Below are positions 6,102 to 26,107 of a stretch of 32,000 nt of DNA, piece by piece (the stretch's first letter is position 1; each line of letters opens with the position of its first letter). The notes under the pieces were generated by a model. That model saw only the letters and a list, made by a program, of their open reading frames with translations, did no database searches and was not told where the DNA came from. The stretch lies in the NCBI RefSeq assembly GCF_900289195.1, contig NZ_OMOH01000003.1, positions 326,697 to 358,696 of the forward strand, given 5' to 3'. The translations under genes were made by a program, and so were the position numbers. This DNA is from Propionibacterium ruminifibrarum. GTDB taxonomy: Bacteria; Actinomycetota; Actinomycetes; Propionibacteriales; Propionibacteriaceae.

Positions 6102-6321
6102 ACGGGTGGCTTCCTGGATCGGGGACGGCTGGCGCTCAGCCTCGTCACTGAGACGAGCCAAGCATAACGCTGCACTGTCAACAATGCGACATTTTCCCGT
6201 TCTTCTTACAAATGACCCTCCTTGTGGCGCAAAAGGTGAGAAATTGTGTAAGCTGCGTCTGCATCGAGGTTCGCCCCGAGCAGTCCTTCACTGTTCGTCA
6301 CTCACACATCGAGGTACGTGC

Positions 6322-7677
6322 ATGTCATCGCCGACATCCATCACGACCGAACGTCCCACGCACTACCGGTGGGTTGTTCTCACGGTCATCTTCATCACCT
6401 ACGTGATCTGCATGGCGGACCGCTCCAACATCGGAGCCGTCCTGCCGATGATCAAGGGAGAGTTCGAGATCTCCAACTTCGCGTCCGGCGCCATCTCGAG
6501 CTTCTTCTTCCTCGGCTACGCGATCTCACAGATCCCGGCCGGCCTGGTCATGACCAAGAAGGGCACCCGGCACATCGTCTCGCTGGCCGTCCTGCTCTTC
6601 TCGATCATCACCTTCTGCATGGGTTTCGCGACCACCGCCGTGGCGCTGCTCGTCCTGCGCCTGCTGCTCGGTCTCATGGAGGGGCCGACACCCGTCGGCA
6701 TGACGTCCACGGTGAACGCCTGGTTCCCGCCGAAGGAGAAGGGCACCGCCACCGGCGTCTACATCGCCTCGACGCAGTTCGCCCCGATCATCGTGCCGAT
6801 CATCGCCGTCGCACTGGCCAACGCCCACGGCTGGCGTTCGGTGTTCCACTGGTTCGCCGTGCCCGGCGTGATCATGGCCGTCGTCTTCTTCCTCGTCCAG
6901 CGCACCCGTCCGAGTGAGTCCAAGCGCGTCAACGCGGCAGAGCTCGCCCACATCAACGACACCAGCGTCTCCGACGTGAAGAAGAAGGCCGACTTCGGCG
7001 ACATGGGGTGGATCGACCGCCTCATCCGGCTGCGCGACGTCAAACCGCTCGACACCAACGGCAAGATCATGCGGTCGTGGAACATCTGGGGCAATACGAT
7101 CGCCTACTTCTTCATGAACAACGTGCTGTACGGCATGCTCACCTGGATCCCCTCGTACCTGGTCGCCGCCCGCGGCTACAACTTCATCAAGATGGGCTTC
7201 GTCGCCTCCGCCCCGTCGATCGGCGGCCTGATCGGCGCCCTCATCGGCGGCATCGTCTCCGACCGCGTCTTCCGCGGGCGCCGCAAGCCCACCATGCTCA
7301 TCACCGCCCTCATGACCGCCGTCATGATGGTCATCGTGCTCGTCGTCCCGCAGAACACCGTCCTGGTCGTCGGCTCGCTGATCCTCACCGGCTTCTTCCT
7401 CAACATCGGGTGGCCCATGTTCACCGCCTACGCGATGAACCTGACGACCGACGAGACCTATCCCTTCGCCATCTCGGTCATCAACTCCGGCGGCAACCTG
7501 GGCGGCTTCTTCGCCCCGATCATCGTCGGGGCCCTGCTGGATGCCTTCTCCGGTAACTACACGGTGGCCTTCAGCTACTTCGTCGTGGTCCTGATCATCG
7601 GCCTCGTGCTGATCCTGACCCTCACCGAGGCCCGTCCGCAGTCCAAGCCGGAGGCCGCGGCAGCGGCGCAGGCCTGA
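6322..7677 (+). CDS. MFS transporter, anion:cation symporter (ACS) type (acid-sugar permease)
   Basis: Multi-TM hydrophobic profile. ADRSNIGAVLPMI and GYAISQIPAG motifs are as in hexuronate/glucarate/galactonate-type MFS. I set the start at ATG 6322 (MSSPTSI). The 72 upstream codons of the track ORF cover the AT-richer divergent promoter and do not look coding. Confidence 0.85.
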   Translation: MSSPTSITTERPTHYRWVVLTVIFITYVICMADRSNIGAVLPMIKGEFEISNFASGAISSFFFLGYAISQIPAGLVMTKKGTRHIVSLAVLLFSIITFCMGFATTAVALLVLRLLLGLMEGPTPVGMTSTVNAWFPPKEKGTATGVYIASTQFAPIIVPIIAVALANAHGWRSVFHWFAVPGVIMAVVFFLVQRTRPSESKRVNAAELAHINDTSVSDVKKKADFGDMGWIDRLIRLRDVKPLDTNGKIMRSWNIWGNTIAYFFMNNVLYGMLTWIPSYLVAARGYNFIKMGFVASAPSIGGLIGALIGGIVSDRVFRGRRKPTMLITALMTAVMMVIVLVVPQNTVLVVGSLILTGFFLNIGWPMFTAYAMNLTTDETYPFAISVINSGGNLGGFFAPIIVGALLDAFSGNYTVAFSYFVVVLIIGLVLILTLTEARPQSKPEAAAAAQA

Positions 7678-7717
7678 TCTCTGCAACGATGGACCCTGCA
7701 CAAGGAGGTGCCCAGAG

Positions 7718-9100
7718 ATGGCGAATGTTGGAATCGTCGCCGATGACCTGACCGGCGGGACGACGGTCGGCGCGCTCATCGCCCGCGAGGGCGTGCCCGC
7801 CACCGTGTTCTTCGACCCGTCATACGTCGAGACGACGCCCCTGCCGGACAACGCCGCGGCGATCGTCAGTACCGACTCACGTGCCATGCCCGCAGAGGTG
7901 GCCTACGACCGGGTGCGCAGGGCAACCCTGACCCTCAAGGGCAGGGGAGCCACGATGTTCGCCAAACGCATCGACACCACGGTCCGCGGCGGCGTGGGGC
8001 CCGAGGTCGAGGGCATGCTCTCCGCGCTCGGCCCCGACTACATGGCGGTCATCGTGCCGGCCATGCCCCAGTCGCGGCGGGTCGTCCTCGAGGGTTACTC
8101 GCTCATCGACTCGGTGCTCCTGACCCGTACCGGCGTCGCCCAGGACGTGCGCACGCCGGTACGGGAGGCCCATCTGCCCACCCTCTTCAAGGCGCAGTTC
8201 AAGGCGAAGCTCGGCCATGTGAACATCAAGCCCGTCATGGCTGGCAAACAGGCCATCAAGCATGAACTCGTCGAGTTGCGCCGCGAGGGCACCAGGATCT
8301 TCCTCATGGACGCGCTGAGCATCGACGACGTCGACCAGATCGCCCAGGCGGTCGTCGACCTCGGCTGGAGGATCGTCTGCGTCGACCCGGGGCCGTTCAC
8401 CGATCGTGTCGCCGTGCACTCAGGGGCCATCGAGCCGGCGGAGGTGCCCCAGCGCGTCACCCGTATCGACCCGGTGCCGGGCGAGACGGGCACTGTTCTC
8501 GTCGTGGCGGGCAGCGCCACCAAGGTGACGCACAACCAGATCACCCGGCTCACCCGGGAGCCCGGGGTCGTCACGCTCTCGATCGACGTCCTGGCGATGC
8601 TCGACAAGGACACCAGTGTCTACGAGGCCGAGTGCCGCAGGGCCGAGGCCGAGGCGAGGCGCCTGCTCGATGAGGCAGCCACGCCGCCTCGCGTGATGGT
8701 CTGCGCGCTCGACACCGTCTACGCCGGCACCACCACCCCGAAAGCCGTCATGGAGGAGCTGTCCGGTCTCACTGGCCCCGAACCGGCCAAACAGCTCACC
8801 GTCCGCTTCGGCGGCCTTGCCCGGCGCATCCTCGACGTGCTCGGAGCGGAGGACTGCGCCGGTGTCTACCTCACCGGCGGTGACGTCATGGTCGCCAGCT
8901 GCGAGGCCTTCGAGGCCAAGGGCATTACGCTGGTCGACTACGTCATCCCGCAGATCGACCAGGGAACCATCACCGGTGGCCCCTTCGAGGGGCTGCCCGT
9001 CGTCTGCAAGGGCGGTCTGACCGGCACCGAGGTCACCGCCATCCAATCTGTCAACCGAATCCTCGACGAAAGGATGCGCACTCATGGCGCAAACGCGTAA
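7718..9100 (+). CDS. Four-carbon acid-sugar kinase family protein (DUF1537; OtnK/DtnK/DenK-like)
   Basis: N-terminal IVADDLTGGTTVGALI is the family signature. AAGGAGG lies 9 nt upstream of the ATG. The gene overlaps the next gene by 17 nt. Confidence 0.85.
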   Translation: MANVGIVADDLTGGTTVGALIAREGVPATVFFDPSYVETTPLPDNAAAIVSTDSRAMPAEVAYDRVRRATLTLKGRGATMFAKRIDTTVRGGVGPEVEGMLSALGPDYMAVIVPAMPQSRRVVLEGYSLIDSVLLTRTGVAQDVRTPVREAHLPTLFKAQFKAKLGHVNIKPVMAGKQAIKHELVELRREGTRIFLMDALSIDDVDQIAQAVVDLGWRIVCVDPGPFTDRVAVHSGAIEPAEVPQRVTRIDPVPGETGTVLVVAGSATKVTHNQITRLTREPGVVTLSIDVLAMLDKDTSVYEAECRRAEAEARRLLDEAATPPRVMVCALDTVYAGTTTPKAVMEELSGLTGPEPAKQLTVRFGGLARRILDVLGAEDCAGVYLTGGDVMVASCEAFEAKGITLVDYVIPQIDQGTITGGPFEGLPVVCKGGLTGTEVTAIQSVNRILDERMRTHGANA

Positions 9101-10118
9101 GCCCGTCATGGCGATCACCATGGGCGATCCCGCCGGCATCGGCCCGGAGATCACCCTCAAGACCATCCAGGACAAGCGGATCTACGACATCTGTGATCCC
9201 TTCATCATCGGCAGCGCCGACTCCCTTCAGCAGGCGGCCGAGATCCAGGGGGTCAAGGACCTGGACATCAATGTCATCACCGAGCCCGAGCAGGCACGGA
9301 ACCAGTACGGCACCATCGACCTGCTCGAGACCGGCGTCGAGCCCGACGCCCAGATCGAGTTCGGTCAGATCCAGGTCGCGGCGGCCAAGCGGGCCTACTC
9401 CTACATCGAGAAGTCCATCGAACTCGGCATGGCCGGCCGGATCGACGGCGTTTCCACCGCGCCGATCAACAAGGCGGCCCTCAAACAGGCCGAGGTGCCC
9501 TACATCGGGCACACCGAGATCTACCAGGCCCTCACGAACTCGCCCTACGCCCTGACGATGTTCAACGTGCACAAGCTGCGTGTCTTCTTCGTCAGCCGCC
9601 ACGTCTCGCTGCGCGAGGCCTGCGACCTGGCCAACCACGACCGCATTCTCGAATTCCTCAAGAACATCGACACCGAACTGAAGAAGTTCGGTTTCGAGCA
9701 CCCGTCGATCGGCGTCGCGGCCCTCAACCCGCACGTCGGCGAGGGTGGTCTGTTCGGCACCGAGGAGATCGAGCACATCGCCCCGGCCGTCAAGGACGCC
9801 CAAGGGCTAGGCATCAATGCCCACGGCCCGGACTCGGCCGACGCGATCTTCGCGTTCAACCTCGACGGCCACTACGACGCCATTCTGTCGATGTACCACG
9901 ACCAGGGGCACATCGCCTGCAAGACGCTGGACTTCCAGAACGCCGTCACCCTGACCCTCGGCCTGCCCTTCATGCGCAGCTCGGTCGATCACGGGACAGC
10001 GTTCGACATCGCAGGCAAGGGCATCGCCCAGGGCGAGTCGATGATCGAGTCCACCCGCGTGGCCGCCGTCTACTCCCAGATGCAGATCGACGCGAAGGCC
10101 AAGGCGGAGCAGTCCTGA
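9084..10118 (+). CDS. pdxA2: PdxA-family NAD-dependent dehydrogenase, PdxA2 type (4-phospho-tetronate dehydrogenase/decarboxylase)
   Basis: Motifs GDPAGIGPEI, GHTE, NPHVGEGG, GPDSAD, YHDQGHI and VDHGTAFDIAGKG. Coupling to a DUF1537 kinase is the context described for PdxA2 rather than the PLP-biosynthetic PdxA. ATG 9108 is an alternative start. Confidence 0.8.
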   Translation: MAQTRKPVMAITMGDPAGIGPEITLKTIQDKRIYDICDPFIIGSADSLQQAAEIQGVKDLDINVITEPEQARNQYGTIDLLETGVEPDAQIEFGQIQVAAAKRAYSYIEKSIELGMAGRIDGVSTAPINKAALKQAEVPYIGHTEIYQALTNSPYALTMFNVHKLRVFFVSRHVSLREACDLANHDRILEFLKNIDTELKKFGFEHPSIGVAALNPHVGEGGLFGTEEIEHIAPAVKDAQGLGINAHGPDSADAIFAFNLDGHYDAILSMYHDQGHIACKTLDFQNAVTLTLGLPFMRSSVDHGTAFDIAGKGIAQGESMIESTRVAAVYSQMQIDAKAKAEQS

Positions 10119-10270: not shown

Positions 10271-10708
10271 ATGAAGCTCATCTTCGGCTGCGATCCCAAC
10301 GCCACCGAGTTCAAGAAGGGCCTGATGGCCAAGGCCGTCGAGCTCGGCCACGAGGTCGAGGACTACGGCGCCGACGACCCGATCTACGCCAACGTGGCCA
10401 CCAAGGTCGCCGAGGACGTCGTGGCGGGCAAGGCCGATCGCGGTGTCGTCGTCTGCGGCACCGGCATCGGCGTCTCGATCGCCGCCAACAAGGTCAAGGG
10501 CGCCTACTGCGCCTGCGTCGCCGACGTCTACCAGGCCCAGCGGGCCACCCTGTCGAACAATGCGAACCTGATCGCCATGGGCTCGCAGGTGCTCGGCATC
10601 GAGACGGCCAAGGTCCTGCTCGAGAACTACCTGGCCAACGAGTTCGACCCCAACTCGCGCAGCGGCGTCAAGGTCGCGCGTATCCGCGAATACGAGAACG
10701 AGCACTGA
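10271..10708 (+). CDS. RpiB/LacA/LacB-family sugar-phosphate isomerase
   Basis: 145 aa. VVVCGTGIGVSIAANKVKG carries the catalytic-Cys motif, and size and layout are typical of RpiB. RBS GAGGAGAGGA lies upstream. Confidence 0.85.
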   Translation: MKLIFGCDPNATEFKKGLMAKAVELGHEVEDYGADDPIYANVATKVAEDVVAGKADRGVVVCGTGIGVSIAANKVKGAYCACVADVYQAQRATLSNNANLIAMGSQVLGIETAKVLLENYLANEFDPNSRSGVKVARIREYENEH

Positions 10709-10735
10709 GCGGTGCGGGGAAGCCGGGATCTGGAC

Positions 10736-11482
10736 ATGAGTGAACCGATCGTCGCGGTGAGTCTCAAGATGTACTTCGAGCGGGCCCGCACGCTCGACTA
10801 CGCCCGCTCGCTCGTCGAGCTGGTCGGCGCCGAACAGGGCCTGTCCGAGGCCGTGCGAATGGCCGTGCTGCCGGACTTCCTGACCATCGCCGAGGCCGGG
10901 ACCATTCTCAACGGCTCGGGCATCGTGCTCGGCGCCCAGGACCTCTGCCAGGACGACCGCGGTGCGCGCACCGGCGAGGTGTCAGGCGCCGACCTGGCGG
11001 CTCTCGGCGTCGGGGTCGTCGAGGTGGGCCACGCCGAGCGCCGAACGATCTACCGCGAGGACGATGCGATGGTCGCCGCGAAGACCGCGGCGGCCGTCCG
11101 CAACGGCATCATCCCACTGCTGTGCATCGGTGAGGCCGAGCGCTCCACCGAGGCGGAGGCGGCCGCCAAGTGCATCGCCCAGGTGCGCTCCGCCCTGGCC
11201 GGTACCCGGCCGGACGATCTCTGGCTCGGTTACGAGCCCTACTGGGCGATCGGCGCTCCGGCTCCGGCGCCGTCCGAGTACGTCTCGGGCGTGTGTCGTC
11301 TGATCCGCGAGGGTCTCGGCGACGTGCCCGGCCTGAGCCTGCTGTACGGCGGCTCGGCCGGCCCCGGCCTGCTCGGTACGCTCGACCCGGCGATCGATGG
11401 CCTCTTCCTGGGACGCTTCGCCCACGACCCGGCCGCCTTCGTCTCGGTCGCCAAGGAGGCCCGTGACCGCGCGGTGGTCTGA
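10736..11482 (+). CDS. Triosephosphate-isomerase-family protein (TpiA paralogue / tetrulose-phosphate isomerase-like)
   Basis: SLKMY (cf. NWKMN), VEVGHAERR (cf. GHSERR) and LLCIGE (cf. CIGE). I chose ATG 10736 by N-terminal length relative to TpiA; GTG 10712 is the track alternative. Confidence 0.8.
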   Translation: MSEPIVAVSLKMYFERARTLDYARSLVELVGAEQGLSEAVRMAVLPDFLTIAEAGTILNGSGIVLGAQDLCQDDRGARTGEVSGADLAALGVGVVEVGHAERRTIYREDDAMVAAKTAAAVRNGIIPLLCIGEAERSTEAEAAAKCIAQVRSALAGTRPDDLWLGYEPYWAIGAPAPAPSEYVSGVCRLIREGLGDVPGLSLLYGGSAGPGLLGTLDPAIDGLFLGRFAHDPAAFVSVAKEARDRAVV

Positions 11483-11515
11483 ACGGAGCCGTGACCCGCT
11501 TCTCGAACCCAGACG

Positions 11516-11561
11516 CACTGGCAGGAGCCGCCGGTACCATGCCCGGCGGTTCCTGCCAGTG
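11516..11561. terminator. Bidirectional stem-loop between the convergent TIM-like gene and a GntR regulator
   Basis: A 19-bp stem: CACTGGCAGGAGCCGCCGG pairs with CCGGCGGTTCCTGCCAGTG (one G-U pair). The loop is the 8 nt TACCATGC. Confidence 0.6.
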
Positions 11562-11652
11562 CTGCGCACTGTGAGTCCGGTGTTCTTCCTCCCCGAGTGG
11601 CGCTCCGGGGAGATGTCGTCGGCGAGTGAGGCGCCAACGGGTCACGGCGGTG

Positions 11653-12384
11653 TCACATCTGGGCCGTGAGGCGTTTCGTCGCGGTTCTCATGTGGGCCCG
11701 CATGGCCTGTTCGGCGGCCTCGACGTCGTGTTTCTCGAGTGCCCGCAGGATCTTCTCGTGCTCGCCCAGGGACTCGACGGCGTCGGCCACGCTGCTCAGT
11801 GCCCGATCCATCCAGATGCTCAGCAGGGTGCGGCAGGTGCGCAGCATGTCGGCGGTCAGGGTGTTGCCGCAACTGTCGACCAGGATGACGTGGAAGCGGT
11901 AGTCGATGGGGATGGTCTTCTGCACGTCGGGGAGTGCCTCGCGCATTGATTCGATGTTGTCCTGGAGCAGGCCGATGGCCTGCTCGTCGGCGCGTTCGGC
12001 GGCCAGACGTGCCGCCTCGACCTCGAGTGCCGAACGGACCTCGAGCAGCTGCTGCGTGTCGTGCTCGCCGAGCAGCATGCCCCAGGTCAGCGTCTTGGGC
12101 AGCAGATCCGATGTCGTGCCGCGCACGTACGTGCCCGCCCCGGGGCGCACTTCGACCAGGCCCAGCAGCTCGAGGGCGGCGAGCGCCTCGCGGACGGCCG
12201 AGCGCCCCACCCCCAGCTTCTCTGCCAGTGCGCGCTCCGGCGGCACCCGATCGCCCGTCGACAGGGGGCCGGTGCCGAAGTGAGCCAGCAGGTGCTGAGC
12301 GACCTCGGCGGCCGTGGTCCCGCGGGGGAGCGTCGACATCTCCTGGAGGAACTCGTCGGCAGGGCCGGATGCGTATGCGGGCAT
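11653..12384 (-). CDS. GntR/FadR-family transcriptional regulator
   Basis: Winged HTH ERALAEKLGVGRSAVREALAALELLGLVEVRPGAGTYV followed by an all-helical FCD-type C-terminal domain. No clear SD before ATG 12384, so the transcript may be leaderless or the start may be internal. Confidence 0.85.
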   Translation of the reverse strand: MPAYASGPADEFLQEMSTLPRGTTAAEVAQHLLAHFGTGPLSTGDRVPPERALAEKLGVGRSAVREALAALELLGLVEVRPGAGTYVRGTTSDLLPKTLTWGMLLGEHDTQQLLEVRSALEVEAARLAAERADEQAIGLLQDNIESMREALPDVQKTIPIDYRFHVILVDSCGNTLTADMLRTCRTLLSIWMDRALSSVADAVESLGEHEKILRALEKHDVEAAEQAMRAHMRTATKRLTAQM

Positions 12385-12441
12385 GCCGTCAATCTACTAG
12401 GCGTGACGTGGCCGGTGCCGAGCACGAAAAGATTACATGTT

Positions 12442-12477
12442 AACCGGTTGACAGGTTTACCGGTGTTCTTCTAATCT
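12442..12477 (+). promoter_or_regulatory. Candidate promoter with overlapping operator for the second MFS operon
   Basis: TTGACA (12448-12453), an 18-nt spacer, then TAATCT (12472-12477). The palindromes AACCGGTT (12442-12449) and ACCGGT (12459-12464) overlap the -35 box and the spacer. The site lies in the divergent GntR/MFS intergenic region. Confidence 0.45.
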
Positions 12478-12539
12478 CGTCCCCATACCGACGCCGCGCA
12501 GCGTTGCGCGAGTCGTCCGAACGATGACGAGGAGGTCAC

Positions 12540-13871
12540 GTGTCGAGTGCTACAACCGTGAACCCGGCTGCTGAGAAGTCGGCGGTTCACAAGATCTCCG
12601 TGCGGCTGGTGCCATTCGTCGCACTGATGTTCTTCATCAACTTCCTCGATCGCACTGCGATCGGTTATGCGGGCCCCAACGGGATGCAGCAGGACCTGGG
12701 CATGACGGCCGCCCAGTTCGGCCTGGCCTCGGGGGTGTTCTTCATCGGGTACATCATTCTTGAGGTCCCCTCGAACCTGGCGCTGCACCGATTCGGCGCC
12801 AGGGTCTGGCTGTCGCGCATCATGGTGTCGTGGGGCATCGTCGCCGTCCTGTTCACCTGGGTCCAGTCCAGCGGCCAGCTGTACGCCCTGCGTGTCCTGC
12901 TCGGCGTCGCCGAGGCCGGCTTCTTCCCCGGGGCCATCCTGTTCCTGAGCATGCTGGTGCCCTCGCAGCATCGCAGCCGTACCCTCATGCTCTTCTACCT
13001 GGCCCAGCCGCTCACCAGCGTGGTCGGGGCCCCGCTGGCCAGCTGGCTCATCCAGCACCACGGCGCCCTCGGGCTCGAGGGCTGGCGCTTCATGTACCTG
13101 TGCGTCGGCGCTCCGGCCATCATCGTCGGCATCGTCGCCTTCTTCTATCTGAAGGACAAGCCAGAGGACTGCCCATGGCTCACCGCGGAGGAGGTCGCGA
13201 GCCTTCGCACTCAGCTGGATGCCGAGGCTGCGGCCAACAGCGGCGAGAAGGGTGAGAAGAACGTCGTGGCCGCGCTCACCAGTGGCCGGGTGTGGGTCCT
13301 CTCGCTCATCTACTTCGGCTTCATCTACGGCCTGTACGCCCTGAGCTTCTTCCTGCCCACGATCATCAAGGGCTTCGGCGAACAGTTCGGCATCGAGTTG
13401 TCGATCCTCCAGCAGGGCCTGGTCACGGCCATCCCGTACGCCTTCGCCGCCCTCGCCATGTACGTCTGGTCGAAGGACGTCACCCGTCGCGGCCTGCGCA
13501 GCTGGCACATCGCCATTCCCGCCGCCATCGGCGGTGTCTCGATCCCGGTCGCCCTGTTCGTCGGTTCGCCGGTCATCGCCATCGGGGTCATCTCGATCAC
13601 CGCCATGTCGATCTTCGCCGTGCTGCCGAACTTCTGGACGCTTCCCACGCAGTTCCTCACAGGAGCCCCCGCGGCTGCCGGCGTCGCCCTCATCAACACG
13701 ATCGGCAACATCGCCGGGTTCTCGGCCGGATACATCACCGGCGCGATCCATGACTGGACCGGCGGCTACACCGTCCCGATGTTCGTCGTCGGCGGCTTCA
13801 TGATCGTGTCCGCGACGCTCATGGTCCTGCTGGCCCGTCGCGGCCAGGTGAGGGTCGCCGACGCCTCCTGA
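12540..13871 (+). CDS. MFS transporter, ACS type (tartrate/acid-sugar transporter-like)
   Basis: GTG start with GAGGAGG 4-5 nt upstream. FINFLDRTAIGYAGP and GYIILEVPSNLALHRFGAR motifs and a multi-TM profile, as in TtuB/galactonate-type permeases. Confidence 0.85.
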   Translation: MSSATTVNPAAEKSAVHKISVRLVPFVALMFFINFLDRTAIGYAGPNGMQQDLGMTAAQFGLASGVFFIGYIILEVPSNLALHRFGARVWLSRIMVSWGIVAVLFTWVQSSGQLYALRVLLGVAEAGFFPGAILFLSMLVPSQHRSRTLMLFYLAQPLTSVVGAPLASWLIQHHGALGLEGWRFMYLCVGAPAIIVGIVAFFYLKDKPEDCPWLTAEEVASLRTQLDAEAAANSGEKGEKNVVAALTSGRVWVLSLIYFGFIYGLYALSFFLPTIIKGFGEQFGIELSILQQGLVTAIPYAFAALAMYVWSKDVTRRGLRSWHIAIPAAIGGVSIPVALFVGSPVIAIGVISITAMSIFAVLPNFWTLPTQFLTGAPAAAGVALINTIGNIAGFSAGYITGAIHDWTGGYTVPMFVVGGFMIVSATLMVLLARRGQVRVADAS

Positions 13872-13909
13872 TCGTCAGGGGCCGGGAAACTGGAAAGGAA
13901 GTGAGGACA

Positions 13910-14722
13910 ATGGGCCTGGGGATCGGCACCTACGCCCTGTTCTGGGAGTGGTCTGAGGCGGTCGAGCATCCCATCGACCTGACGGGCATGCTCGACGTGG
14001 CGGCCGAACTCGACTGCGATGTCTTTCAGATCTGCGACTACCCGCTCATCGAGACGATGGACGTCCATCAGCTGAACGACATCGCCGCCCAGGCTCGTGG
14101 GCTGGGCCTGGAGCTCGAGCTGGGCACCCGTGGCACACGCTCCGAGCACCTGAACAGGTACCTGGACATCGCCGAGACGCTGGGCGCCCACATGCTGCGC
14201 TCCATGGTGCGCGTGGGCGCCGGCGAACCCACACTCGACGAGTCCCTCGCCTCGGTCCGGGGACTGCTGGCGCGGCTCCACGAGAACGGCGTCTCGATCG
14301 CCTTCGAGACCTATGAACAGCTGCCCAGCGAGCGTCTCGTGCAGTTCGTGACCGATGTCAACGATCCGCACGTCGGCATCTGCCTCGACCCCGCCAACTG
14401 CGTCGCCGGGCTCGAACTGCCCGGTGACGTGATCGGTCGCTGTGCGCCGTACACGCTCAACCTGCACGTGAAGGACTTCGCCTTCACCCGCCAGGCGGGC
14501 TGGGTGGGGTTCACCTACGCGGGGGCGGCGATGGGGGAGGGGCTGCTCGACTTCGACGCCGAGATGAAGGCGGTCCGTCCCCTCGAACGGGGCATCAACA
14601 TGATCGTCGAGCACTGGCTCACCTGGCAGGGCGACCCGAAGTCCACCGTCGCGCTGGAGCGGCAGTGGACACGCCGGAGCCTCGACTACATCCGCAACTA
14701 CATCGAAACCAAGGAGAACTGA
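13910..14722 (+). CDS. Sugar-phosphate isomerase/epimerase (xylose-isomerase-like TIM barrel, AP_endonuc_2 type)
   Basis: About 270 aa with an alternating beta/alpha pattern and metal-ligand-like motifs (FETYE, ICLDPANC, LHVKDF, IVEHW). I prefer ATG 13910, with GGAAAGGAAG 9 nt upstream, to GTG 13901. Confidence 0.7.
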   Translation: MGLGIGTYALFWEWSEAVEHPIDLTGMLDVAAELDCDVFQICDYPLIETMDVHQLNDIAAQARGLGLELELGTRGTRSEHLNRYLDIAETLGAHMLRSMVRVGAGEPTLDESLASVRGLLARLHENGVSIAFETYEQLPSERLVQFVTDVNDPHVGICLDPANCVAGLELPGDVIGRCAPYTLNLHVKDFAFTRQAGWVGFTYAGAAMGEGLLDFDAEMKAVRPLERGINMIVEHWLTWQGDPKSTVALERQWTRRSLDYIRNYIETKEN

Positions 14723-14725
14723 ACC

Positions 14726-15580
14726 ATGAGTGAGAACCTGAAGATCGCAGTCGTCGGCGCCGGCGGCAAGATGGGCATGCGCGTGTCCAACAACCTGCAG
14801 CGCACCGACTGGACCGTGTTCTACTGCGAGAACGGTGAGGCCGGGAGGCAGCGCGTGCAGGAGGCGGGCCGCGAGGTCGTGCCGACCGACGATGTCATCG
14901 GTGACGTCGACGTCGCGATCCTGGCCGTGCCCGACGTGGCCCTTGAGCCCGTCACCGCCGACGTCGTCCCCAAGATGAAGTCCGGCGCCATGGTGCTGAC
15001 CCTCGACCCGGCGGCGGCCTATGCCGGCCTGCTGACCATGCGCGATGATCTCGACTATGTCGTGGCCCACCCCACGCATCCGTCGGTGTTCCTCGAGCGC
15101 CACACGCCGGAGGAGTACGCCGACACCTTCGGTGGTGTTGCCGCCCCGCAGAACTCGGTCGCGGCGCTGCAGCAGGGCGACGAGTCGATCAAGCCGCTCG
15201 CCGAGAAGATCATCTCGACCATGTACGGTCCGGTCATCAAGGTCTACTGGACCTCGGTGCACGACCTGGCCGTGCTCGAACCCACCCTCAACGAGACCAT
15301 CGGCTGCATGATCGGCCAGTTCCTCAAGGACGCCATCGACGCCACGGTATGCCACACCGACATGGACGAGGCGACCGTGACAGCCATGATCCATGGCCAC
15401 ATCTGGATCGCCCTGACCAATGCCCTGCGCGGCTCGAACCCGTTCTCGGACGCCTGCCTGCTGGCCATGGACTACGGCCGCGAGGCCATCATCAAGGACG
15501 ATTGGGAACGCATCTTCAACGATGACGACCTCGACATCGTCATCGCCAAGATGCTCAAGCTCGACAAGGTCAGGCACTGA
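14726..15580 (+). CDS. NAD(P)-binding oxidoreductase (Rossmann N-domain plus 6PGDH-C-like helical domain)
   Basis: KIAVVGAGGKMG dinucleotide-binding motif at the N-terminus. AAGGAGAA RBS is present. The ATG lies 3 nt after the upstream stop. Substrate unknown. Confidence 0.65.
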   Translation: MSENLKIAVVGAGGKMGMRVSNNLQRTDWTVFYCENGEAGRQRVQEAGREVVPTDDVIGDVDVAILAVPDVALEPVTADVVPKMKSGAMVLTLDPAAAYAGLLTMRDDLDYVVAHPTHPSVFLERHTPEEYADTFGGVAAPQNSVAALQQGDESIKPLAEKIISTMYGPVIKVYWTSVHDLAVLEPTLNETIGCMIGQFLKDAIDATVCHTDMDEATVTAMIHGHIWIALTNALRGSNPFSDACLLAMDYGREAIIKDDWERIFNDDDLDIVIAKMLKLDKVRH

Positions 15581-15605
15581 CCGACTGTCGGATCGGCGAA
15601 GAAAG

Positions 15606-15641
15606 AGGGATGGTGGTCTCGTCAAGGAGGCCACCATCCCT
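15606..15641 (+). terminator. Intra-operon stem-loop between the oxidoreductase and the DAK-type kinase
   Basis: A 15-bp stem: AGGGATGGTGGTCTC pairs with GAGGCCACCATCCCT (one G-U pair). Loop is GTCAAG. The 3' arm and loop contain AAGGAGG. It is followed by TATATCCTGT. Confidence 0.45.
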
Positions 15642-15719
15642 ATATCCTGTAGGAACTAACCCTATGGTTCGGGCCGCTGGGCCCTCAACGATGAGCACAA
15701 CCATGAGATGGGAGAGACA

Positions 15720-17420
15720 ATGACGTACCTGGTTGGCGAGCCGCTGGATTTCGCGGCTGACAGTCTTGCGGGCTTCGTGGCCGCGCACTCTGATCTGGTC
15801 CAGGCGGTTCACGGTGGCGTGGTCCGCGCCGACGCCTCACCGCAGGGCGAGGTGGCCGTCGTCGTCGGCGGGGGTTCCGGTCATTACCCGGCGTTCGCGG
15901 GCTGGGTTGGCCCGGGCATGGCCCACGCTGCCGTCTGCGGCAACATCTTCGCCTCGCCGTCGGACTCGCAGGTCGTGTCGGTCTCGAGGGCGGCCGACAA
16001 CGGCGGGGGCGTCCTGCTGCTGTTCGGCAACTACGCCGGTGACTGCCTTCAGTTCGGCAAGGGTGCCGAGGTGCTCAACGCCGAGGGCATCGCCACACGC
16101 ATCGAGACGATCACCGATGACGTGGCCTCGCGCCCCGTCGAGCAGTGGGCCGAGCGCCGGGGCATCGCCGGTGACTTCTTTGTCGTCAAGATTGCCGGCG
16201 CTGCCGCCGCGGCGGGCTACGACCTCGACGGTCTCGTAGAGGCCACCCGTCGCGCGAACGCAGCCACCAAGACCCTGGGCATCGCCTTCGACGCCCCGAC
16301 CCTGCCCGGTGCTGCCGAGCCCCTGTTCACCGTGCCCGAGGGGCACTACGAACTCGGTCTGGGCATCCACGGCGAACCCGGCCTGTCCTCGCACCCGCTG
16401 AGCGGGGTCGATGATATCGCCAAGACCCTCGTCGAGGGCCTCCTCGCCGAGAAGCCTGCCGATGCGCGACGAGTCGGCGTCCTGGTCAACGGCCTGGGCT
16501 GCACCAAGTACGAGGAGATGTTCGTCCTGTACGGGCGAGTGGCTCGGCTGCTCGAGGCCGCCGGCTTGCAGATCGTCGTCCCGATCGTCGACGAACAGGT
16601 CACCAGTCTTGACATGGCCGGTGTCTCCCTGTCGGTCTGCTTCCTCGACGACGAGCTCGAGAAGCTCCTGCTCGCCCCGGCTCTGACACCGGCCTACACC
16701 CGTGGCGCCGTTGAACACGGCGGTCCTCGGCGCGAGGTCTCCACCGAGGAGAGCGCCGAGCTGGCGGCCGGTTCGCCGGAGTCGGCGGCGCAGGGCGCCA
16801 GACTCGCCACGATCGTGGCCCTCATGGCCGAGACGGCCGTAGCCGATGCCGACTTCCTCGGCAGGCTCGACTCCATCGCCGGCGACGGCGATCACGGGCA
16901 GGGCATGGTGCTCGGTTCGCGTGCCGCGGCGAAGGCTGCTGCTGTCGCCTCGGATGCGGGGGCCGGTGCCGCGACAGTCCTGAAGCAGGCGGGTCTGGCA
17001 TGGGCGGAAGGCGCAGGAGGCACCTCGGGGGCGTTGTGGGGTCGCGCGCTCGAGGCCGTGGGTGCGGGCCTGTCCGATGACGCGGCGGCCGATGCGGCCA
17101 CAGTGATCGCCGCTGTCGCAGCCGGTGCCGAATCCGTGGCTGCCAGCGGCGGCGCCGTGCCAGGCGACAAGACGATGGTCGACGCCACTACTCCGTTCGC
17201 CGTTGCGCTGCGCGATGCCGGTGATGACCTGCCGGGCGCCTTCGCCACCGCGGCCAGGGCCGCCACTGACGGGGCAGAGGCGACCAAGGACCTCGTGGCC
17301 CGCAAGGGCCGCGCCACGACGCACGGCGACGCCTCACTCGGCCATCCCGACCCGGGGGCGATCTCCTTCGCCCGCCACATGACGAGGATTGCTGAGTACC
17401 TGGCCGATCATCAGGCCTGA
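15720..17420 (+). CDS. Fused DhaK-DhaL (DAK-family) ATP-dependent kinase with non-canonical substrate-site motif
   Basis: DhaK domain (VVVGGGSGHYPAF, ELGLGIHGEPG) fused to a DhaL domain (DSIAGDGDHGQGM, GGTSGALWG). ATG 15708 is an in-frame alternative start. Confidence 0.85.
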   Translation: MTYLVGEPLDFAADSLAGFVAAHSDLVQAVHGGVVRADASPQGEVAVVVGGGSGHYPAFAGWVGPGMAHAAVCGNIFASPSDSQVVSVSRAADNGGGVLLLFGNYAGDCLQFGKGAEVLNAEGIATRIETITDDVASRPVEQWAERRGIAGDFFVVKIAGAAAAAGYDLDGLVEATRRANAATKTLGIAFDAPTLPGAAEPLFTVPEGHYELGLGIHGEPGLSSHPLSGVDDIAKTLVEGLLAEKPADARRVGVLVNGLGCTKYEEMFVLYGRVARLLEAAGLQIVVPIVDEQVTSLDMAGVSLSVCFLDDELEKLLLAPALTPAYTRGAVEHGGPRREVSTEESAELAAGSPESAAQGARLATIVALMAETAVADADFLGRLDSIAGDGDHGQGMVLGSRAAAKAAAVASDAGAGAATVLKQAGLAWAEGAGGTSGALWGRALEAVGAGLSDDAAADAATVIAAVAAGAESVAASGGAVPGDKTMVDATTPFAVALRDAGDDLPGAFATAARAATDGAEATKDLVARKGRATTHGDASLGHPDPGAISFARHMTRIAEYLADHQA

Positions 17421-17438: not shown

Positions 17439-17492
17439 GCACGGGCGCCTCCTCCATCGGTGAAGCGAAGCCGGTGGAGGAGGCGCCCGTGC
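17439..17492 (+). terminator. Large GC-rich terminator-like hairpin after the DAK-type kinase
   Basis: A 22-bp stem: GCACGGGCGCCTCCTCCATCGG pairs with CCGGTGGAGGAGGCGCCCGTGC (one G-U pair). The loop is the 10 nt TGAAGCGAAG. It starts 19 nt after the stop codon and has no U-tract. Confidence 0.65.
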
Positions 17493-17682
17493 GCGATGGA
17501 TGTGGCTGGGCAGGATCGTGATCAGGCGGTTCGGTGTCCGGAGCCAACCGTGGTGGTCGCGGGTCTGCTGCCGGATGGATCGCAACGGCAGGCCTCTGGT
17601 CGATCGCCGATAGGTGTCGCCTTGTGCCCCATGGATGCGCGAGGGGCTGTAGACAGATGAGGAATTACTGGCGTTAGCGTCC

Positions 17683-17725
17683 TATATGATCTATGATGTG
17701 GCATATCTGATCGACGATGACGTCC
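17683..17725 (+). promoter_or_regulatory. AT-rich tandem TATGAT(C/G) motif, site A
   Basis: TATATGATCTATGAT (17683-17697) is identical to 31959-31973. Downstream TGATCG-N3-ATGACGTCC parallels TGATCG-N4-ATGACGTCC at site B. Confidence 0.5.
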
Positions 17726-18022
17726 TGATCGGAGGGACATATGCACACGACGGATGCATGGCGCATCGGGTGCACGACATCGCCCCATGCGCACGCTGGG
17801 GATGGCCAGGTTGCTGACCGGATGGTTCTTGGTCCTGGGCCCCACCTGCTGAATCGCAGCACGCGAGTCGGGCTCGGCGAGGCAGACACCGTGGTGTGCT
17901 CCGCGTCTCAGAAAAGATGGGGCCATGCGCTCTGAAGCGCCATGGCCTCGTTCACACCAGTCGCCGAAACGGGCGGCGGGTTCACCAAGTTTTAGTTCAG
18001 CTATGTGACAAGGAGGTCCATC

Positions 18023-19402
18023 ATGGCGGGAGAACTGACTTCTCGTGTGGCGCCAGATGAAGCGACCGTGAACAGTGCCCTTGGCAAGGTGACCAAGCAT
18101 CTCATCCCATTCCTGTTACTCATGTACGTGATTGCGTTCGTTGACCGGACAAATCTTGGCTGGGCGCAACAGGAATGGGAGGCTAACTATGGGATATCCA
18201 CCGCTGCCTACACATTCGGCGCCACTTTGTTCTTCGTGGGCTACGCCGTCTTCGAGGTGCCTTCGAACCTGATCATGCACAAGGTCGGGGCGCGCTGGTG
18301 GATGACCAGGATCATGATCACATGGGGCATCGTGGCGGCATGCTTCATGTTCGTCCAAGGACCCAAGACTTTTTATGCCCTTCGATTCCTGCTGGGTGTC
18401 GCCGAAGCCGGCTTCTTCCCCGGTGTGATGTTGTACCTGACTTACTGGTACCCTGCTGCCCGCAGGGCATGGGCGACCGGGCTGTTCTACATGGGGCTAC
18501 CCATCGCCAATATGTTCGGGAATCCCCTGTCCGGGAGCCTGCTGGAGCTCGACGGTGTTCTGGGTATGGACGGCATCCACTGGATGTTTCTGGTCGAAGG
18601 AGCATTGGCCGTGGTCGTCGGCATTATCTGCCCGTGGGTTCTCGTCGATCGTCCCAGCAAGGCGTCATGGTTGACTGAAGAGGAGCAGCGGGACCTCACC
18701 CAGCAAATCGAACTCGAGGAAGCGGCAAAGCAAAAGGCCAAGCCGATCAGTTGGGGAAGGGCACTGGCAGATCCACGCATCCTCTATTTCTGCCTGATCT
18801 ACTTCTGCATCCAGGCCTCTGTCTATGGACTTACGTTCTTCTTGCCGAAACAGGTCACCTCGATGACTGGCACGACGGCAGGTTTCAAAGCATCACTTGT
18901 CACCGCGATCCCATGGGTGGTTGCTCTCATCGGAGTCCTCATTGTCCCCAAAGTCGCTGACCGGCGACAGAACCACCGTTTGCTGTCGGGGCTCATGCTG
19001 GCCTTCTCTGGAATGGGGATCATGGGATCCGCACTGTTTCTTCATCAGCTCGTGCCGGCGCTGGCGCTGCTGTCCATTGCGGCGATCGGCTTCACCTGTG
19101 CGCAACCCATCTTCTGGCAGCTCCCGACCAGGTACCTCAGTGGTGCGGCACTCGCCGGTGCCACTGGCTTGATCAATGCCGTCGGAAACCTGGGCGGTTG
19201 GGCTGCTCCGCTGCTGCGTACTTGGGCGACTCAGAGCGCATTCGGCACCGCAGACAGCCCAAATGAAGCGGCTGGTCTCGTGGTGCTCGGCATGGCGGGT
19301 GTCGTCGGTGTTCTGCTCGTCACCGGACTCAATTTCTTCAAGAAATCAGTAGAAGAACGTGAAGCTCTTTCCCTGCAGAGCGGGGAATCCTTGGACAAGT
19401 GA
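18023..19402 (+). CDS. MFS transporter, ACS type (L-rhamnonate transporter RhmT-like)
   Basis: AAGGAGG lies 6 nt upstream of ATG 18023. FVDRTNLGWAQ and GYAVFEVPSNLIMHKVGAR motifs and a multi-TM profile. First gene of the rhm-like cluster. Confidence 0.8.
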   Translation: MAGELTSRVAPDEATVNSALGKVTKHLIPFLLLMYVIAFVDRTNLGWAQQEWEANYGISTAAYTFGATLFFVGYAVFEVPSNLIMHKVGARWWMTRIMITWGIVAACFMFVQGPKTFYALRFLLGVAEAGFFPGVMLYLTYWYPAARRAWATGLFYMGLPIANMFGNPLSGSLLELDGVLGMDGIHWMFLVEGALAVVVGIICPWVLVDRPSKASWLTEEEQRDLTQQIELEEAAKQKAKPISWGRALADPRILYFCLIYFCIQASVYGLTFFLPKQVTSMTGTTAGFKASLVTAIPWVVALIGVLIVPKVADRRQNHRLLSGLMLAFSGMGIMGSALFLHQLVPALALLSIAAIGFTCAQPIFWQLPTRYLSGAALAGATGLINAVGNLGGWAAPLLRTWATQSAFGTADSPNEAAGLVVLGMAGVVGVLLVTGLNFFKKSVEEREALSLQSGESLDK

Positions 19403-19437
19403 ATCATGGAGAATATCTGACAAGGAGGATTGGAAAG

Positions 19438-20220
19438 ATGAAAGAGTATCAGAAGGCTGTATTCCCAGATCGTCACACGGCCGTTGTGAGTGGTGCGGGA
19501 GCACCTCGAGGGATCGCCCGCAAGACTGCCCACAGGCTAGCCGCCGAGGGCTGGGACATCGTGGTTGTCGATCTTTCCGACAAGGTGTTGGAGTTCGGGG
19601 ATGAACTTGCCCGGGAATATCCTGAGCAAGACTCCCTGGCAATCCAGCTCGACATCTCTGACGAGAATCAGGTGAAAAATGCCTTCGCTCGGATCAAATC
19701 GGAGATGCCGCCCGTGGTTGGTCTTGCAAATATCGCGGGAATTGCCTGTCCTGTGCCGTTGCTCGAACTGGACGCCGCGCTCTTCGACAAGGTTCTGGCG
19801 GTCAACTGCCGCGGCACGATGTTGATGATGAAGTACGCGGCTGAGCATATGAAAGAATATGGGATCGGACGTATCGTCAACTTCTCGTCCATTACTGCTC
19901 TGGATGGCGGAGGCACTTTCTCGAAATTCGCATATGCGGCGGCAAAGGCTGGGGTTCTTGGCATTACCAAGGGTGGTGCTCGAGAACTCGGACCCTACGG
20001 CATTACAACCAATGCGGTTCTGCCCGGTCCGATCGACACCGACATCATGGGCGGTAAGCTCACGGACGAGCGCAAGAAGCAGATGTCCTCGAACATTCCA
20101 GTGGGTCGTGTCGGCCAGCCCGAGGAGATTGCTGCCGTGGTGTCCTTCCTCCTTTCTGCTGACGCCTCGTTCGTCAATGGCGTCTCGCTGAATGTTGACG
20201 GTGGTAAGCAGATGCACTGA
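19438..20220 (+). CDS. Short-chain dehydrogenase/reductase (SDR)
   Basis: AAGGAGG RBS before ATG 19438. Gly-rich VVSGAGAPRGIARK, NFSS, YAAAK (YxxxK) and PGPIDT motifs are present. Confidence 0.85.
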   Translation: MKEYQKAVFPDRHTAVVSGAGAPRGIARKTAHRLAAEGWDIVVVDLSDKVLEFGDELAREYPEQDSLAIQLDISDENQVKNAFARIKSEMPPVVGLANIAGIACPVPLLELDAALFDKVLAVNCRGTMLMMKYAAEHMKEYGIGRIVNFSSITALDGGGTFSKFAYAAAKAGVLGITKGGARELGPYGITTNAVLPGPIDTDIMGGKLTDERKKQMSSNIPVGRVGQPEEIAAVVSFLLSADASFVNGVSLNVDGGKQMH

Positions 20221-20229
20221 GTGGTATCT

Positions 20230-20265
20230 GGGTGGCGGGTCTTGCCTCAATAGTGCCCGCCACCC
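20230..20265 (+). terminator. Intra-operon stem-loop between the SDR and rhmD
   Basis: GGGTGGCGGG (20230-20239) pairs perfectly with CCCGCCACCC (20256-20265). The loop is 16 nt. Confidence 0.4.
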
Positions 20266-20294
20266 GGGGTACCTGAGAAACAGGAGGAGGGATC

Positions 20295-21503
20295 ATGACA
20301 CTTCCGACGATCACGGATATCCGTGCTTATTTCATGGGCGGAGCGAGTTCTTCGAGTGGCGGCCAAGGAGGTGGTGATTATCACGATCAAGGATCTGGGC
20401 ACTGGATTGACGATCACATCGCCACTCCGATGAGCAAGTATCCGCAATACGAACAGTCTCGTCAATCATTTGGCATAAACGTGCTTGGTACGCTTGTGGT
20501 TGAGGTCGAGGCAAGTGATGGGACGATTGGGTTCGCTATTTCTACGGCGGGCTTGATAGGCTGTTTCATAGCCGAGCATCATCTATCCAGGTTCCTCATC
20601 GGTCGGCGCGTTGATGACATCAAATTGATTCACGATCAGATGACCAACGCCACGCATTTCTATTCCGGTGGTGGTGGCGTTGTCATCAACACGATCTCAT
20701 GCATCGACTTGGCGCTGTGGGATTTGTTCGGCAAGGTTGTGCAGCAGCCCGTGTACAGCCTGCTGGGCGGTGCGGTGCGAGATGAGATTCAGTTCTATGC
20801 TACTGGTTCCCGTCCGGACTTGGCACGCGAGATGGGCTTCATTGGTGGCAAGATACCCACGCACTACGGACCGCATGACGGGGATGCGGGAATTCGGGCA
20901 GAGGTGGAGCGGGTCAAGAGGTTCAGGGGTCTGGTGGGGCCAGATTTCTGGCTCATGTTTGACTGCTGGATGAGTCAGGATGTCAATTATGCTGTCAAAC
21001 TTGCCCATGCAGTGGCTCCGTTCGGCGTGAAGTGGCTGGAAGAATCGTTCCCGGCTGCGCAATATGAGAGTTATGCTGCTTTGAAACGGCAGATGCCACC
21101 AGGGATGATGGTCACCTCTGGTGAACACACTGGAAACCTTGTCGCGTTCCGAACGTTGAGTGAAACAGGTATCGACGTCCTGCAGCCTGATGTGGGATGG
21201 TGCGGTGGTCTCACCTCGCTCGTGGAGATCGCGGCGATTGCGAAATCAAAAGGGCAACTTGTGGTGCCGCACGGTTCCTCCGTCTACTCCCACCATGCCG
21301 TGATCACGTTCGTGAACACTCCGTTCAGTGAATTTTTGATGACGAGCCCGGGTGCCGATGAGATCAGGCCCCAGTTCGATCCCCTCCTCGTCAATGAACC
21401 CGTTCCAGTTGACGGGCGGATCAGCAAAGCGGAACTCACGAAACCTGGCTTCGGAGTGGACCTCAATCGCGCATGCCCGCTTGAAAGGCCATTTGTGCAC
21501 TGA
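20295..21503 (+). CDS. rhmD: L-rhamnonate dehydratase (enolase superfamily)
   Basis: 402 aa. Long stretches ([84 protein letters not shown]) match my recollection of E. coli RhmD/YfaW nearly residue for residue. AGGAGGAGGG RBS is present. Confidence 0.9.
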
Positions 21504-21505
21504 CC

Positions 21506-22351: not shown

Positions 22352-22375
22352 TGTGAATGCTGGGAAGAGCTACTA

Positions 22376-23185: not shown

Positions 23186-23219
23186 TACGAGTCCGCGGGC
23201 CGGACTGCGGCGCGACGCC

Positions 23220-26064: not shown

Positions 26065-26107
26065 GGGCCCGCGGCCCGATCGCCACGAAGGAAGAAGGGA
26101 ACCACGC

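Follow-up and report, generated by a model that had tools for sequence, protein, structure and literature searches.

Which substrate is served by an operon that combines an anion-type permease, a xylose-isomerase-like TIM barrel, an NAD-binding oxidoreductase and a fused DhaK-DhaL kinase? The question is raised by positions 11653-17420 of a 32,000-nucleotide stretch of Propionibacterium ruminifibrarum DNA (RefSeq assembly GCF_900289195.1, contig NZ_OMOH01000003.1, positions 326,697 to 358,696 of the forward strand; this whole stretch is referred to below as the window), where these four genes lie divergent from the gene of a GntR/FadR-type regulator. A preliminary description of the locus had read them as an L-threonate/D-erythronate (tetronate) pathway in which a DAK-type kinase replaces the usual DUF1537 kinase or, as a fallback, as an erythrulose-type route that receives its substrate from an anion-type permease. 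It had overlooked two genes immediately upstream (10271-11482, + strand), which encode paralogues of RpiB and of triose-phosphate isomerase (TIM). Together with this pair, the operon is likely to form a GntR-controlled module for the utilisation of D-apionate, leading via L-erythrulose to erythrose-4-phosphate. The genes concerned are as follows.

10271-10708, + strand: RpiB-family gene (Pfam LacAB_rpiB, 133 bits)
10712-11482, + strand: TIM-family gene (Pfam TIM, 166 bits)
11653-12384, - strand: GntR/FadR-subfamily regulator, divergent from the operon (Pfam GntR helix-turn-helix, 65 bits, and FCD, 98 bits)
12540-13871, + strand: ACS-like MFS permease, candidate D-apionate:H+ symporter (MFS_1, 140 bits)
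13901-14722, + strand: AP_endonuc_2 xylose-isomerase-like TIM barrel, candidate OiaX-like 3-oxoisoapionate decarboxylase (Pfam, 64 bits)
14726-15580, + strand: PGDH_C-family NAD-binding enzyme, candidate ApnO-like D-apionate oxidoisomerase (PGDH_C, 164 bits, with a KARI_N-like Rossmann N-terminus)
15708-17420, + strand: fused DhaK-DhaL (DAK) ATP-dependent kinase, candidate LerK-like L-erythrulose kinase (Dak1, 352 bits, and Dak2, 139 bits)

Profile searches with Pfam and NCBIfam confirmed all five genes of the 11653-17420 region at these coordinates and in the families that had been claimed for them. The G+C content at the third codon position is 0.83-0.92 in all five frames, which, in a window whose 1-kb segments mostly have 63-71% G+C (values drop at about 18-23 kb), identifies them as real coding frames. 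The start of the MFS permease is preceded by a GAGGAGG ribosome-binding site, and its top NCBIfam match is TIGR00893 (D-galactonate transporter, ACS subfamily), at 257 bits and thus under the cutoff of 395. In Propionibacterium and in many other Actinomycetota the NCBI names of the catabolic genes are generic, namely ‘sugar phosphate isomerase/epimerase family protein’, ‘phosphogluconate dehydrogenase C-terminal domain-containing protein’ and ‘dihydroxyacetone kinase family protein’.

Judged by its sequence matches, the oxidoreductase belongs to the ApnO family and not to the LtnD/DenD or beta-hydroxyacid dehydrogenases. Its top match in the Protein Data Bank (PDB) is 5t57 (E 5.6e-59, 41% identity across 261 residues), which a preprint on Rossmann-fold oxidoreductases (bioRxiv 10.1101/2020.08.24.261826) equates with ApnO, the D-apionate oxidoisomerase reported by Carter et al., 2018, and a metagenomic homologue with 63% identity carries the Joint Genome Institute (JGI) name D-apionate oxidoisomerase. 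All sequences of the family alignment share the nucleotide-binding motif GAGGKMG, and the match to NAD_binding_2 amounts to only 21 bits. The reaction described for ApnO comprises oxidation of D-apionate at C2 and migration of the hydroxymethyl group (PMC12994016); ApnO, OiaK and OiaX are listed in the same source as D-apionate degradation genes and attributed there to Carter et al., 2018 (Nat Chem Biol 14:696, PMID 29867142). The oxidoreductase is accordingly named here as a candidate D-apionate oxidoisomerase.

The TIM barrel encoded next to it had been taken for an OtnI-like isomerase, and the operon for one that lacks a decarboxylase. Both points are altered by the homologues of this protein: seven full-length relatives (50-54% identity, approximately 305-313 bits) bear the JGI name 3-oxoisoapionate decarboxylase. 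No NCBIfam family was matched by the barrel, and the search of the PDB for characterised relatives returned only a weak match, the uncharacterised 3tva (E 1.5e-10). On the strength of the named homologues, the barrel is most likely itself the decarboxylase that had been deemed missing, rather than an isomerase; isomerisation would then fall to the oxidoreductase and decarboxylation to the barrel.

Pairing of these two enzymes is a nearly constant feature of related loci. One genome per species was scanned with an alignment of ApnO-like proteins, which yielded at least 561 relatives, and the best 80 loci were analysed. These are mostly from Actinomycetota, with many Microbacteriaceae, Arthrobacter-type genera and Propionibacteriaceae, and one is from Pantoea. 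Partner genes were sought by tblastn with the window proteins and counted within 9 kb of the ApnO-like gene; several loci end at contig edges, and the counts below are therefore lower bounds.

OiaX-like gene: 78 of 80 loci, adjoining the ApnO-like gene as it does in the window
GntR gene: 67 of 80 loci, divergent from the operon in most
TIM gene: 62 of 80 loci, usually directly upstream of OiaX-ApnO
RpiB gene: 59 of 80 loci
DAK gene: 54 of 80 loci
MFS gene: 47 of 80 loci, with a median identity of 67%
DUF1537 or PdxA gene: 0 of 80 loci, in the whole ±10-kb locus and even at E 1e-3

The commonest order, found in 31 loci, is GntR on the minus strand followed by MFS-DAK-RpiB-TIM-OiaX-ApnO, and precomputed Pfam labels place the same compact operon in Rathayibacter and Actinosynnema. 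By virtue of this co-occurrence and order across the 80 loci, the seven genes are a single conserved functional unit, of which the arrangement in the window, with RpiB-TIM across the regulator gene, is a rearranged copy; the gene order of the window is shared by P. australiense. The genomic context of the PGDH_C-like family had been put forward in the preliminary description as a check. The TIM and RpiB genes found in it would be superfluous for a route that ends in dihydroxyacetone phosphate (DHAP). A conserved tetrulose-type kinase with two conserved sugar-phosphate isomerases points instead to a C4 ketose as the product, and hence to a C5 acid that loses one carbon.

It is on the dehydrogenase family, the role of the TIM barrel and the conserved isomerase partners that the tetronate pathway as first proposed fails. 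The known L-threonate and D-erythronate routes, with LtnD/DenD, OtnI, OtnK and OtnC, are outlined in PMC12994016, and the proposal was that the DAK enzyme phosphorylates 3-oxo-tetronate in place of the DUF1537 kinase OtnK. We now give this hardly any credence. The domain classes (oxidoreductase, AP_endonuc_2 barrel and kinase) do match superficially, and the dihydroxyacetone-like end of 3-oxo-tetronate makes the kinase reaction a reasonable one on chemical grounds, but the oxidoreductase is of the ApnO family and not a beta-hydroxyacid dehydrogenase, the homologues of the barrel, itself without an NCBIfam match, are named as decarboxylases, and the TIM and RpiB partners are left unexplained. 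Domain searches of the window proteins found no DUF1537 gene in the operon and no Aldolase_II protein in the window, so that there is no OtnC-type decarboxylase to complete such a route. Nor has the DUF1537 kinase been replaced in this region, as an intact DUF1537 gene lies with a PdxA-family gene in the next operon.

This neighbouring operon precedes RpiB-TIM and consists of a SorC-family regulator gene on the minus strand, divergent from genes of an MFS permease, a DUF1537 kinase and a PdxA-family dehydrogenase (window 5115-10118). Its DUF1537 protein scores 135 bits against the OxoTetrKin (3-oxo-tetronate kinase) model, with a cutoff of 350, and 191 bits against the D-threonate kinase model, with a cutoff of 450, whereas its PdxA protein reaches 481 bits against the PdxA equivalog PRK03743, slightly over the cutoff of 470. 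From these scores, it looks like a D-threonate/D-erythronate kinase plus PdxA2 route to DHAP. Routes of this kind, for L-threonate/D-erythronate and for D-threonate/D-erythronate with a kinase and PdxA2, were reportedly described by Zhang et al. in 2016. The presence of a DUF1537-PdxA operon beside the apionate module is specific to Propionibacterium, given its absence from all of the other ApnO loci.

The DAK protein is matched at 666 bits by the broad family model NF011049 (‘dihydroxyacetone kinase family protein’) and falls below the glycerone-kinase equivalog TIGR02361, with 345 bits against a cutoff of 575. Alignment with two dihydroxyacetone (DHA) kinase chains, the Citrobacter enzyme and the DhaK subunit 3ct4, shows that the loop at residues ~50-60, which reads GGGSGHEPAH in both PDB chains, is GGGSGHYPAF in the window protein. 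The substrate-binding motifs NYAGD (NYxGD) and GIHGEPG are retained. One homologue of the protein is named erythrulose kinase. GGGSGHYPAF is present in 113 of 120 close homologues and in 51 of the 55 DAK genes of ApnO-linked loci; it is also found in a Trueperella DAK protein (61% identical) that is encoded with Zn-type alcohol dehydrogenases and RpiB. Since the motif is common to DAK proteins of ApnO operons and to this DAK protein of a polyol cluster, the clade looks like one of erythrulose kinases that serve acid-fed and polyol-fed routes alike, and GGGSGHYPAF may be a sequence marker for such kinases. Phosphorylation of erythruloses by DAK-family kinases in the mycobacterial tetritol pathways, as stated in the preliminary description, fits the published account (PMC10733421). 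A plain operon for DHA or glycerol kinase was also considered and was rejected on account of the failed TIGR02361 equivalog and the conserved partner genes.

The properties of the kinase bear equally on a tetronate route to DHA, in which D-erythronate or L-threonate would be oxidised to 3-oxo-tetronate, which the TIM barrel, or a spontaneous reaction, would convert to DHA for phosphorylation to DHAP by the DAK enzyme. An ApnO reaction on D-erythronate would amount to a hypothetical D-erythronate 3-dehydrogenase (PMC12994016), DHA is recorded as a product of L-threonate 3-dehydrogenase (Aspen and Jakoby, as cited in PMC12994016), enzymes of the DAK family are classically DHA kinases, and an anion-type permease suits an acid substrate. 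A C3 product, however, has no need of RpiB or TIM, and yet these are present in 59 and 62 of the 80 loci, usually within the operon; the kinase not only falls below the glycerone-kinase equivalog but has an altered active-site motif, and a separate DUF1537-PdxA tetronate operon is found next door. We regard this route as very unlikely.

If the operon instead serves D-apionate, as we favour, a pathway of six steps can be proposed, in which all of the substrates and products, the position phosphorylated by the kinase, the effector and control by repression are predictions from sequence. The ACS-like MFS permease would import D-apionate, the aldonic acid that corresponds to D-apiose, a sugar of plant cell walls, and the ApnO-like PGDH_C enzyme would, with NAD+, oxidise it at C2 and shift the hydroxymethyl branch, to give the beta-keto acid 3-oxoisoapionate. 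The OiaX-like TIM barrel would cleave 3-oxoisoapionate to L-erythrulose and CO2, and the LerK-like DhaK-DhaL kinase would use ATP to convert L-erythrulose to L-erythrulose-1-phosphate. Thereafter the LerI-like TIM paralogue would isomerise L-erythrulose-1-phosphate to D-erythrulose-4-phosphate, and the DerI-like RpiB paralogue would convert the latter to D-erythrose-4-phosphate, which would enter the pentose-phosphate pathway. For the mycobacterial enzymes, PMC10733421 documents the reactions of LerK, LerI and DerI, from L-erythrulose to erythrose-4-phosphate, and cites them to earlier work; these three reactions are also mentioned in PMC12994016. The fallback of the preliminary description, with its erythrulose-type pathway and anion-type permease, was essentially right and is supported by the present data.

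Several observations weigh against the D-apionate assignment. The sole ApnO that is tied to the literature, 5t57, shares just 41% identity with the oxidoreductase, and its closer homologue and those of the TIM barrel owe the names ApnO and OiaX, respectively, to automatic annotation by JGI. From the name of the enzyme, EC 4.1.1.120 and the pathway databases, OiaX would take the acid in its unphosphorylated form and yield L-erythrulose. A single route that joins ApnO and OiaX to LerK, LerI and DerI is said to have been set out by Carter et al. in 2018. The assignments of the two isomerases are likewise loose: the RpiB paralogue scores 130 bits against the rhizobial DerI model, under its cutoff of 240, and the TIM paralogue scores 117.6 bits against the PDB entry for LerI, 11ef, as compared with 119.6 bits against the triose-phosphate isomerase of M. 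tuberculosis, a comparison that does not show orthology to the mycobacterial LerI. Furthermore, RpiB-TIM stands apart from the operon in the window, on the far side of the regulator, and the operator-like palindrome described below was not found a second time, either before RpiB-TIM or elsewhere in the window (searches with an 18-mer at up to 3 mismatches and with the 11-mer core). Finally, no D-apiose dehydrogenase (ApsD), D-apionolactonase (ApnL) or apiose transporter was recognised in the gene list of the window, which leaves the source of D-apionate unexplained. The missing ApsD and ApnL concern the upper pathway alone, as a module that imports D-apionate itself needs neither.

In further NCBIfam comparisons, the RpiB paralogue reaches 142 bits against the NCBIfam RpiB subfamily model, over its cutoff of 135, and the TIM paralogue falls under the NCBIfam triose-phosphate isomerase equivalog, with 158 bits against a cutoff of 293.

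In an alternative reading the architecture is the same and the acid is another one, either a linear pentonate, for example a xylonate or lyxonate isomer, or another branched C5 acid, which would be oxidised to a 3-keto acid, decarboxylated to D- or L-erythrulose and channelled to erythrose-4-phosphate. Oxidation of C5 and C6 sugar acids at C3 followed by decarboxylation is real in bacteria, and C5 acids have been linked to erythrulose phosphates, LerI and DerI (PMC12994016); the modest identity to the structurally solved ApnO, the lack of an apiose dehydrogenase or lactonase in the window, and the fact that the TIM, RpiB and DAK partners need a tetrulose product and not D-apionate specifically, all allow for such a substrate. 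Against it, both of the specificity-determining enzymes group with proteins named for the apionate pathway, the KARI-like N-terminus of the oxidoreductase fits the alkyl migration of ApnO and would be superfluous for a plain 3-dehydrogenase, and the pairing of ApnO with OiaX in 78 of the 80 loci argues for one conserved substrate in the clade. We consider another C5 acid unlikely.

The locus is most likely an unannotated copy of a known system, without new chemistry, and the statement of the preliminary description that this gene set is undescribed is probably wrong in view of the listing of ApnO and OiaX as D-apionate genes (PMC12994016), of the JGI names and of the account of LerK, LerI and DerI (PMC10733421). 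It is rather unlikely that the substrate of the MFS-linked actinobacterial ApnO/OiaX clade is a sugar acid other than D-apionate, such as a tetronate or a linear pentonate, and that it is degraded by an undescribed route of 3-oxidation, decarboxylation and DAK phosphorylation.

Compared with the D-apionate ApnO/OiaX system, the window has an oxidoreductase and a TIM barrel of the same families, encoded by adjacent genes, and a proposed continuation by a kinase of the DAK type and by paralogues of TIM and RpiB. The differences lie in the absence of ApsD, ApnL and a binding-protein-dependent apiose transporter from the window, where acid uptake is apparently by the ACS-like MFS permease, in the GntR/FadR regulator with its conserved palindromic putative operator, in the host, Propionibacterium, and in the splitting off of RpiB-TIM beyond the regulator gene in that genus. 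The OiaK/OiaC-OiaT variant of apionate degradation, whose enzyme set with the RuBisCO-like OiaC is listed in PMC11747546, has the same first step by ApnO and the same intermediate, 3-oxoisoapionate. In that variant the keto acid is first phosphorylated by a DUF1537 kinase, OiaK, and then decarboxylated or cleaved by OiaC or OiaT, whereas in the window decarboxylation would come first and the DAK enzyme would act on the neutral ketose. In this limited sense, and within an apionate rather than a tetronate pathway, DAK does stand in for a DUF1537 kinase. Tetritol catabolism in Mycolicibacterium smegmatis (Huang et al., 2015, JACS 137:14570; steps after PMC10733421) starts with a polyol dehydrogenase whose substrate is erythritol or threitol, while in the window L-erythrulose would arise by decarboxylation of a C5 keto acid; LerI of the M. 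smegmatis system falls in the TIM family, as seen from the match to PDB entry 11ef, and DerI in the RpiB family, as seen from the match to the NCBIfam DerI model. With the L-threonate/D-erythronate pathway, the proposed module has in common that an anion-type permease would import an acid sugar and that a keto acid would be formed by oxidation and then decarboxylated; a DUF1537-PdxA operon of the tetronate type lies directly upstream in the window. It departs from the LtnD/DenD-OtnI-OtnK-OtnC pathway in its dehydrogenase family, in a TIM barrel that is a decarboxylase candidate and in lacking OtnC, and also in that DAK would act after decarboxylation and a C4 ketose would be converted to erythrose-4-phosphate and not to DHAP.

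The regulator shows the domain layout of the FadR subfamily, an N-terminal winged-helix GntR domain followed by a C-terminal FCD domain, and the spacer between its gene and the MFS gene contains an operator-like palindrome. The features of the intergenic regions are as follows.

11515-11562, no strand assigned: hairpin, probable bidirectional terminator between the convergent TIM and GntR genes (20-nt arms, 95% complementary; z-score -4.6)
12435-12456, no strand assigned: operator-like palindrome ACATGTTAACCGGTTGACAGGT, within the 155-bp GntR-MFS spacer
12448-12477, + strand: promoter-like TTGACA, 18 nt, TAATCT, read from the sequence as a putative promoter, with the palindrome overlapping the -35 box
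15601-15646, + strand: hairpin in the 127-nt gap (15581-15707) between the ApnO-like and DAK genes (20-nt arms, 85% complementary; -56.4 kcal/mol, z-score -4.9)
17439-17492, + strand: terminator-like hairpin after the DAK gene (22-nt arms, 95% complementary; -66.1 kcal/mol, z-score -7.1)

A 22-bp consensus, ATTGGTCAACCGGTTGACCAAT, is present in 51 of 54 GntR-operon spacers of related loci, which represent many actinobacterial families. The palindrome of the window is degenerate at its ends, as the 18-mer has no match in the window at up to 3 mismatches, and its 11-nt core, AACCGGTTGAC, occurs without mismatch once in the window, at the GntR-MFS site. The ATTGGTCAACCGGTTGACCAAT palindrome, of which no description was found, is a candidate operator of this GntR regulon, and, from its position over the -35 box, the FadR-type GntR protein probably represses the operon through it; D-apionate or an early intermediate would release the repressor. 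The putative TTGACA-TAATCT promoter was passed over by a consensus scanner, its -10 box fitting 3 of 6 positions, and the consensus scan of the window for promoters and terminators was altogether uninformative on this high-G+C DNA. An Rfam scan of the window gave no matches.

Strong hairpins (z-scores -4.6 to -7.1) lie 3' of the PdxA, TIM, ApnO-like and DAK genes, and RpiB-TIM and possibly DAK may on this account be separate or attenuated transcription units. The hairpin at 15601-15646 lacks a clear U-tract; it might serve as a partial terminator or internal attenuator, as a processing site or as a stabilising element, and expression of DAK could differ from that of the first three genes.

The DAK protein of the window has identities of 91% with that of P. 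australiense, 88% with that of P. acidifaciens and 63% with that of P. freudenreichii, in which the TIM gene directly follows the DAK gene. One P. freudenreichii strain (GCA_001369055.1) has GntR on the plus strand followed by MFS-OiaX-ApnO-DAK-TIM. Relative to this strain, a 3.9-kb segment is gone from GCA_053839625.1, where a 62-aa PGDH_C remnant is left and DAK-TIM is kept, and in a third strain GntR on the minus strand stands immediately before DAK. The apionate genes thus vary among P. freudenreichii strains while DAK-TIM stays, and the retention of DAK-TIM without them hints at a second role, for example in the use of erythritol; the retained pair could account genetically for the fermentation of erythritol that has been recorded in propionibacteria.

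Such strains might suggest that DAK is functionally separate altogether, serving the catabolism of erythritol and threitol or of glycerol and DHA, and that its adjacency to the other genes is a matter of chance in this genus. The strong hairpin and the 127-nt gap before the DAK gene, the loss of MFS, OiaX and most of ApnO from strains that retain DAK-TIM, and the Trueperella DAK gene, which stands beside Zn-type alcohol dehydrogenases and not beside ApnO, can all be read in this way. However, the occurrence of DAK in 54 of the 80 ApnO loci extends over many families, and in the commonest order it lies between MFS and RpiB in one operon, so that the link is not a chance of this genus and full separation is highly improbable. 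An additional role in tetritol catabolism would be compatible with the D-apionate module and does not compete with it.

Reduced versions of the locus also exist. In about ten of the 80, GntR on the minus strand is followed by OiaX-ApnO, without DAK, TIM or RpiB within 10 kb. In both of the reduced loci inspected (L050 and L058) a gene of the short-chain dehydrogenase/reductase (SDR) family directly follows ApnO, and in about 15 of the 80 loci, some of them with full operons, ApnO is followed by an orthologue of this SDR with 62-78% identity to that of L050; the window has none. Possible activities of this SDR are those of a D-apiose dehydrogenase and of an erythrulose reductase. The Pantoea locus, checked for an apiose dehydrogenase or lactonase, contained only a SorC regulator and housekeeping genes.

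If the D-apionate assignment is right, Propionibacterium species akin to P. australiense, P. acidifaciens and P. freudenreichii would be predicted to use an apiose-derived acid of plant pectin, a trait that would vary among P. freudenreichii strains, and a substrate would be offered for a widespread MFS permease and for a GntR regulator with a defined operator. The value is chiefly one of annotation, in that a set of generically named genes would become a module from D-apionate to erythrose-4-phosphate. A search of the available literature found no paper linking Propionibacterium, or P. freudenreichii in particular, to apiose.

Several other parts of the window deserve mention. The region at about 17500-23200 has a G+C content of 55-59%, as against 63-71% in most of the window, and is present in P. 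australiense too. It carries genes for an MFS permease, an SDR, an MR_MLE enolase-superfamily enzyme, an HpcH/HpaI aldolase and a divergent GntR/FCD regulator; it looks like a pathway of sugar-acid dehydratase and aldolase and was possibly acquired horizontally. At its start, a 192-aa minus-strand open reading frame after the DAK gene (17522-18100) has no Pfam match and may be non-genic.

The block at 23538-31755 comprises a DeoR regulator, a DUF7973 protein (359 aa), a HAD hydrolase, an FGGY kinase, a glycerol-1-phosphate-dehydrogenase-like Fe-ADH_2 enzyme and a ribulokinase, and is probably a polyol or pentitol catabolic block. It is syntenic in P. freudenreichii, and in Trueperella bernardiae it directly adjoins genes for DAK, a Zn-type alcohol dehydrogenase and RpiB. 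At the other end of the window, a 780-aa open reading frame (56-2398) shows a weak, sub-threshold match to the carbohydrate-binding-module-like domain of polysaccharide lyase family 4 (rhamnogalacturonan lyase).

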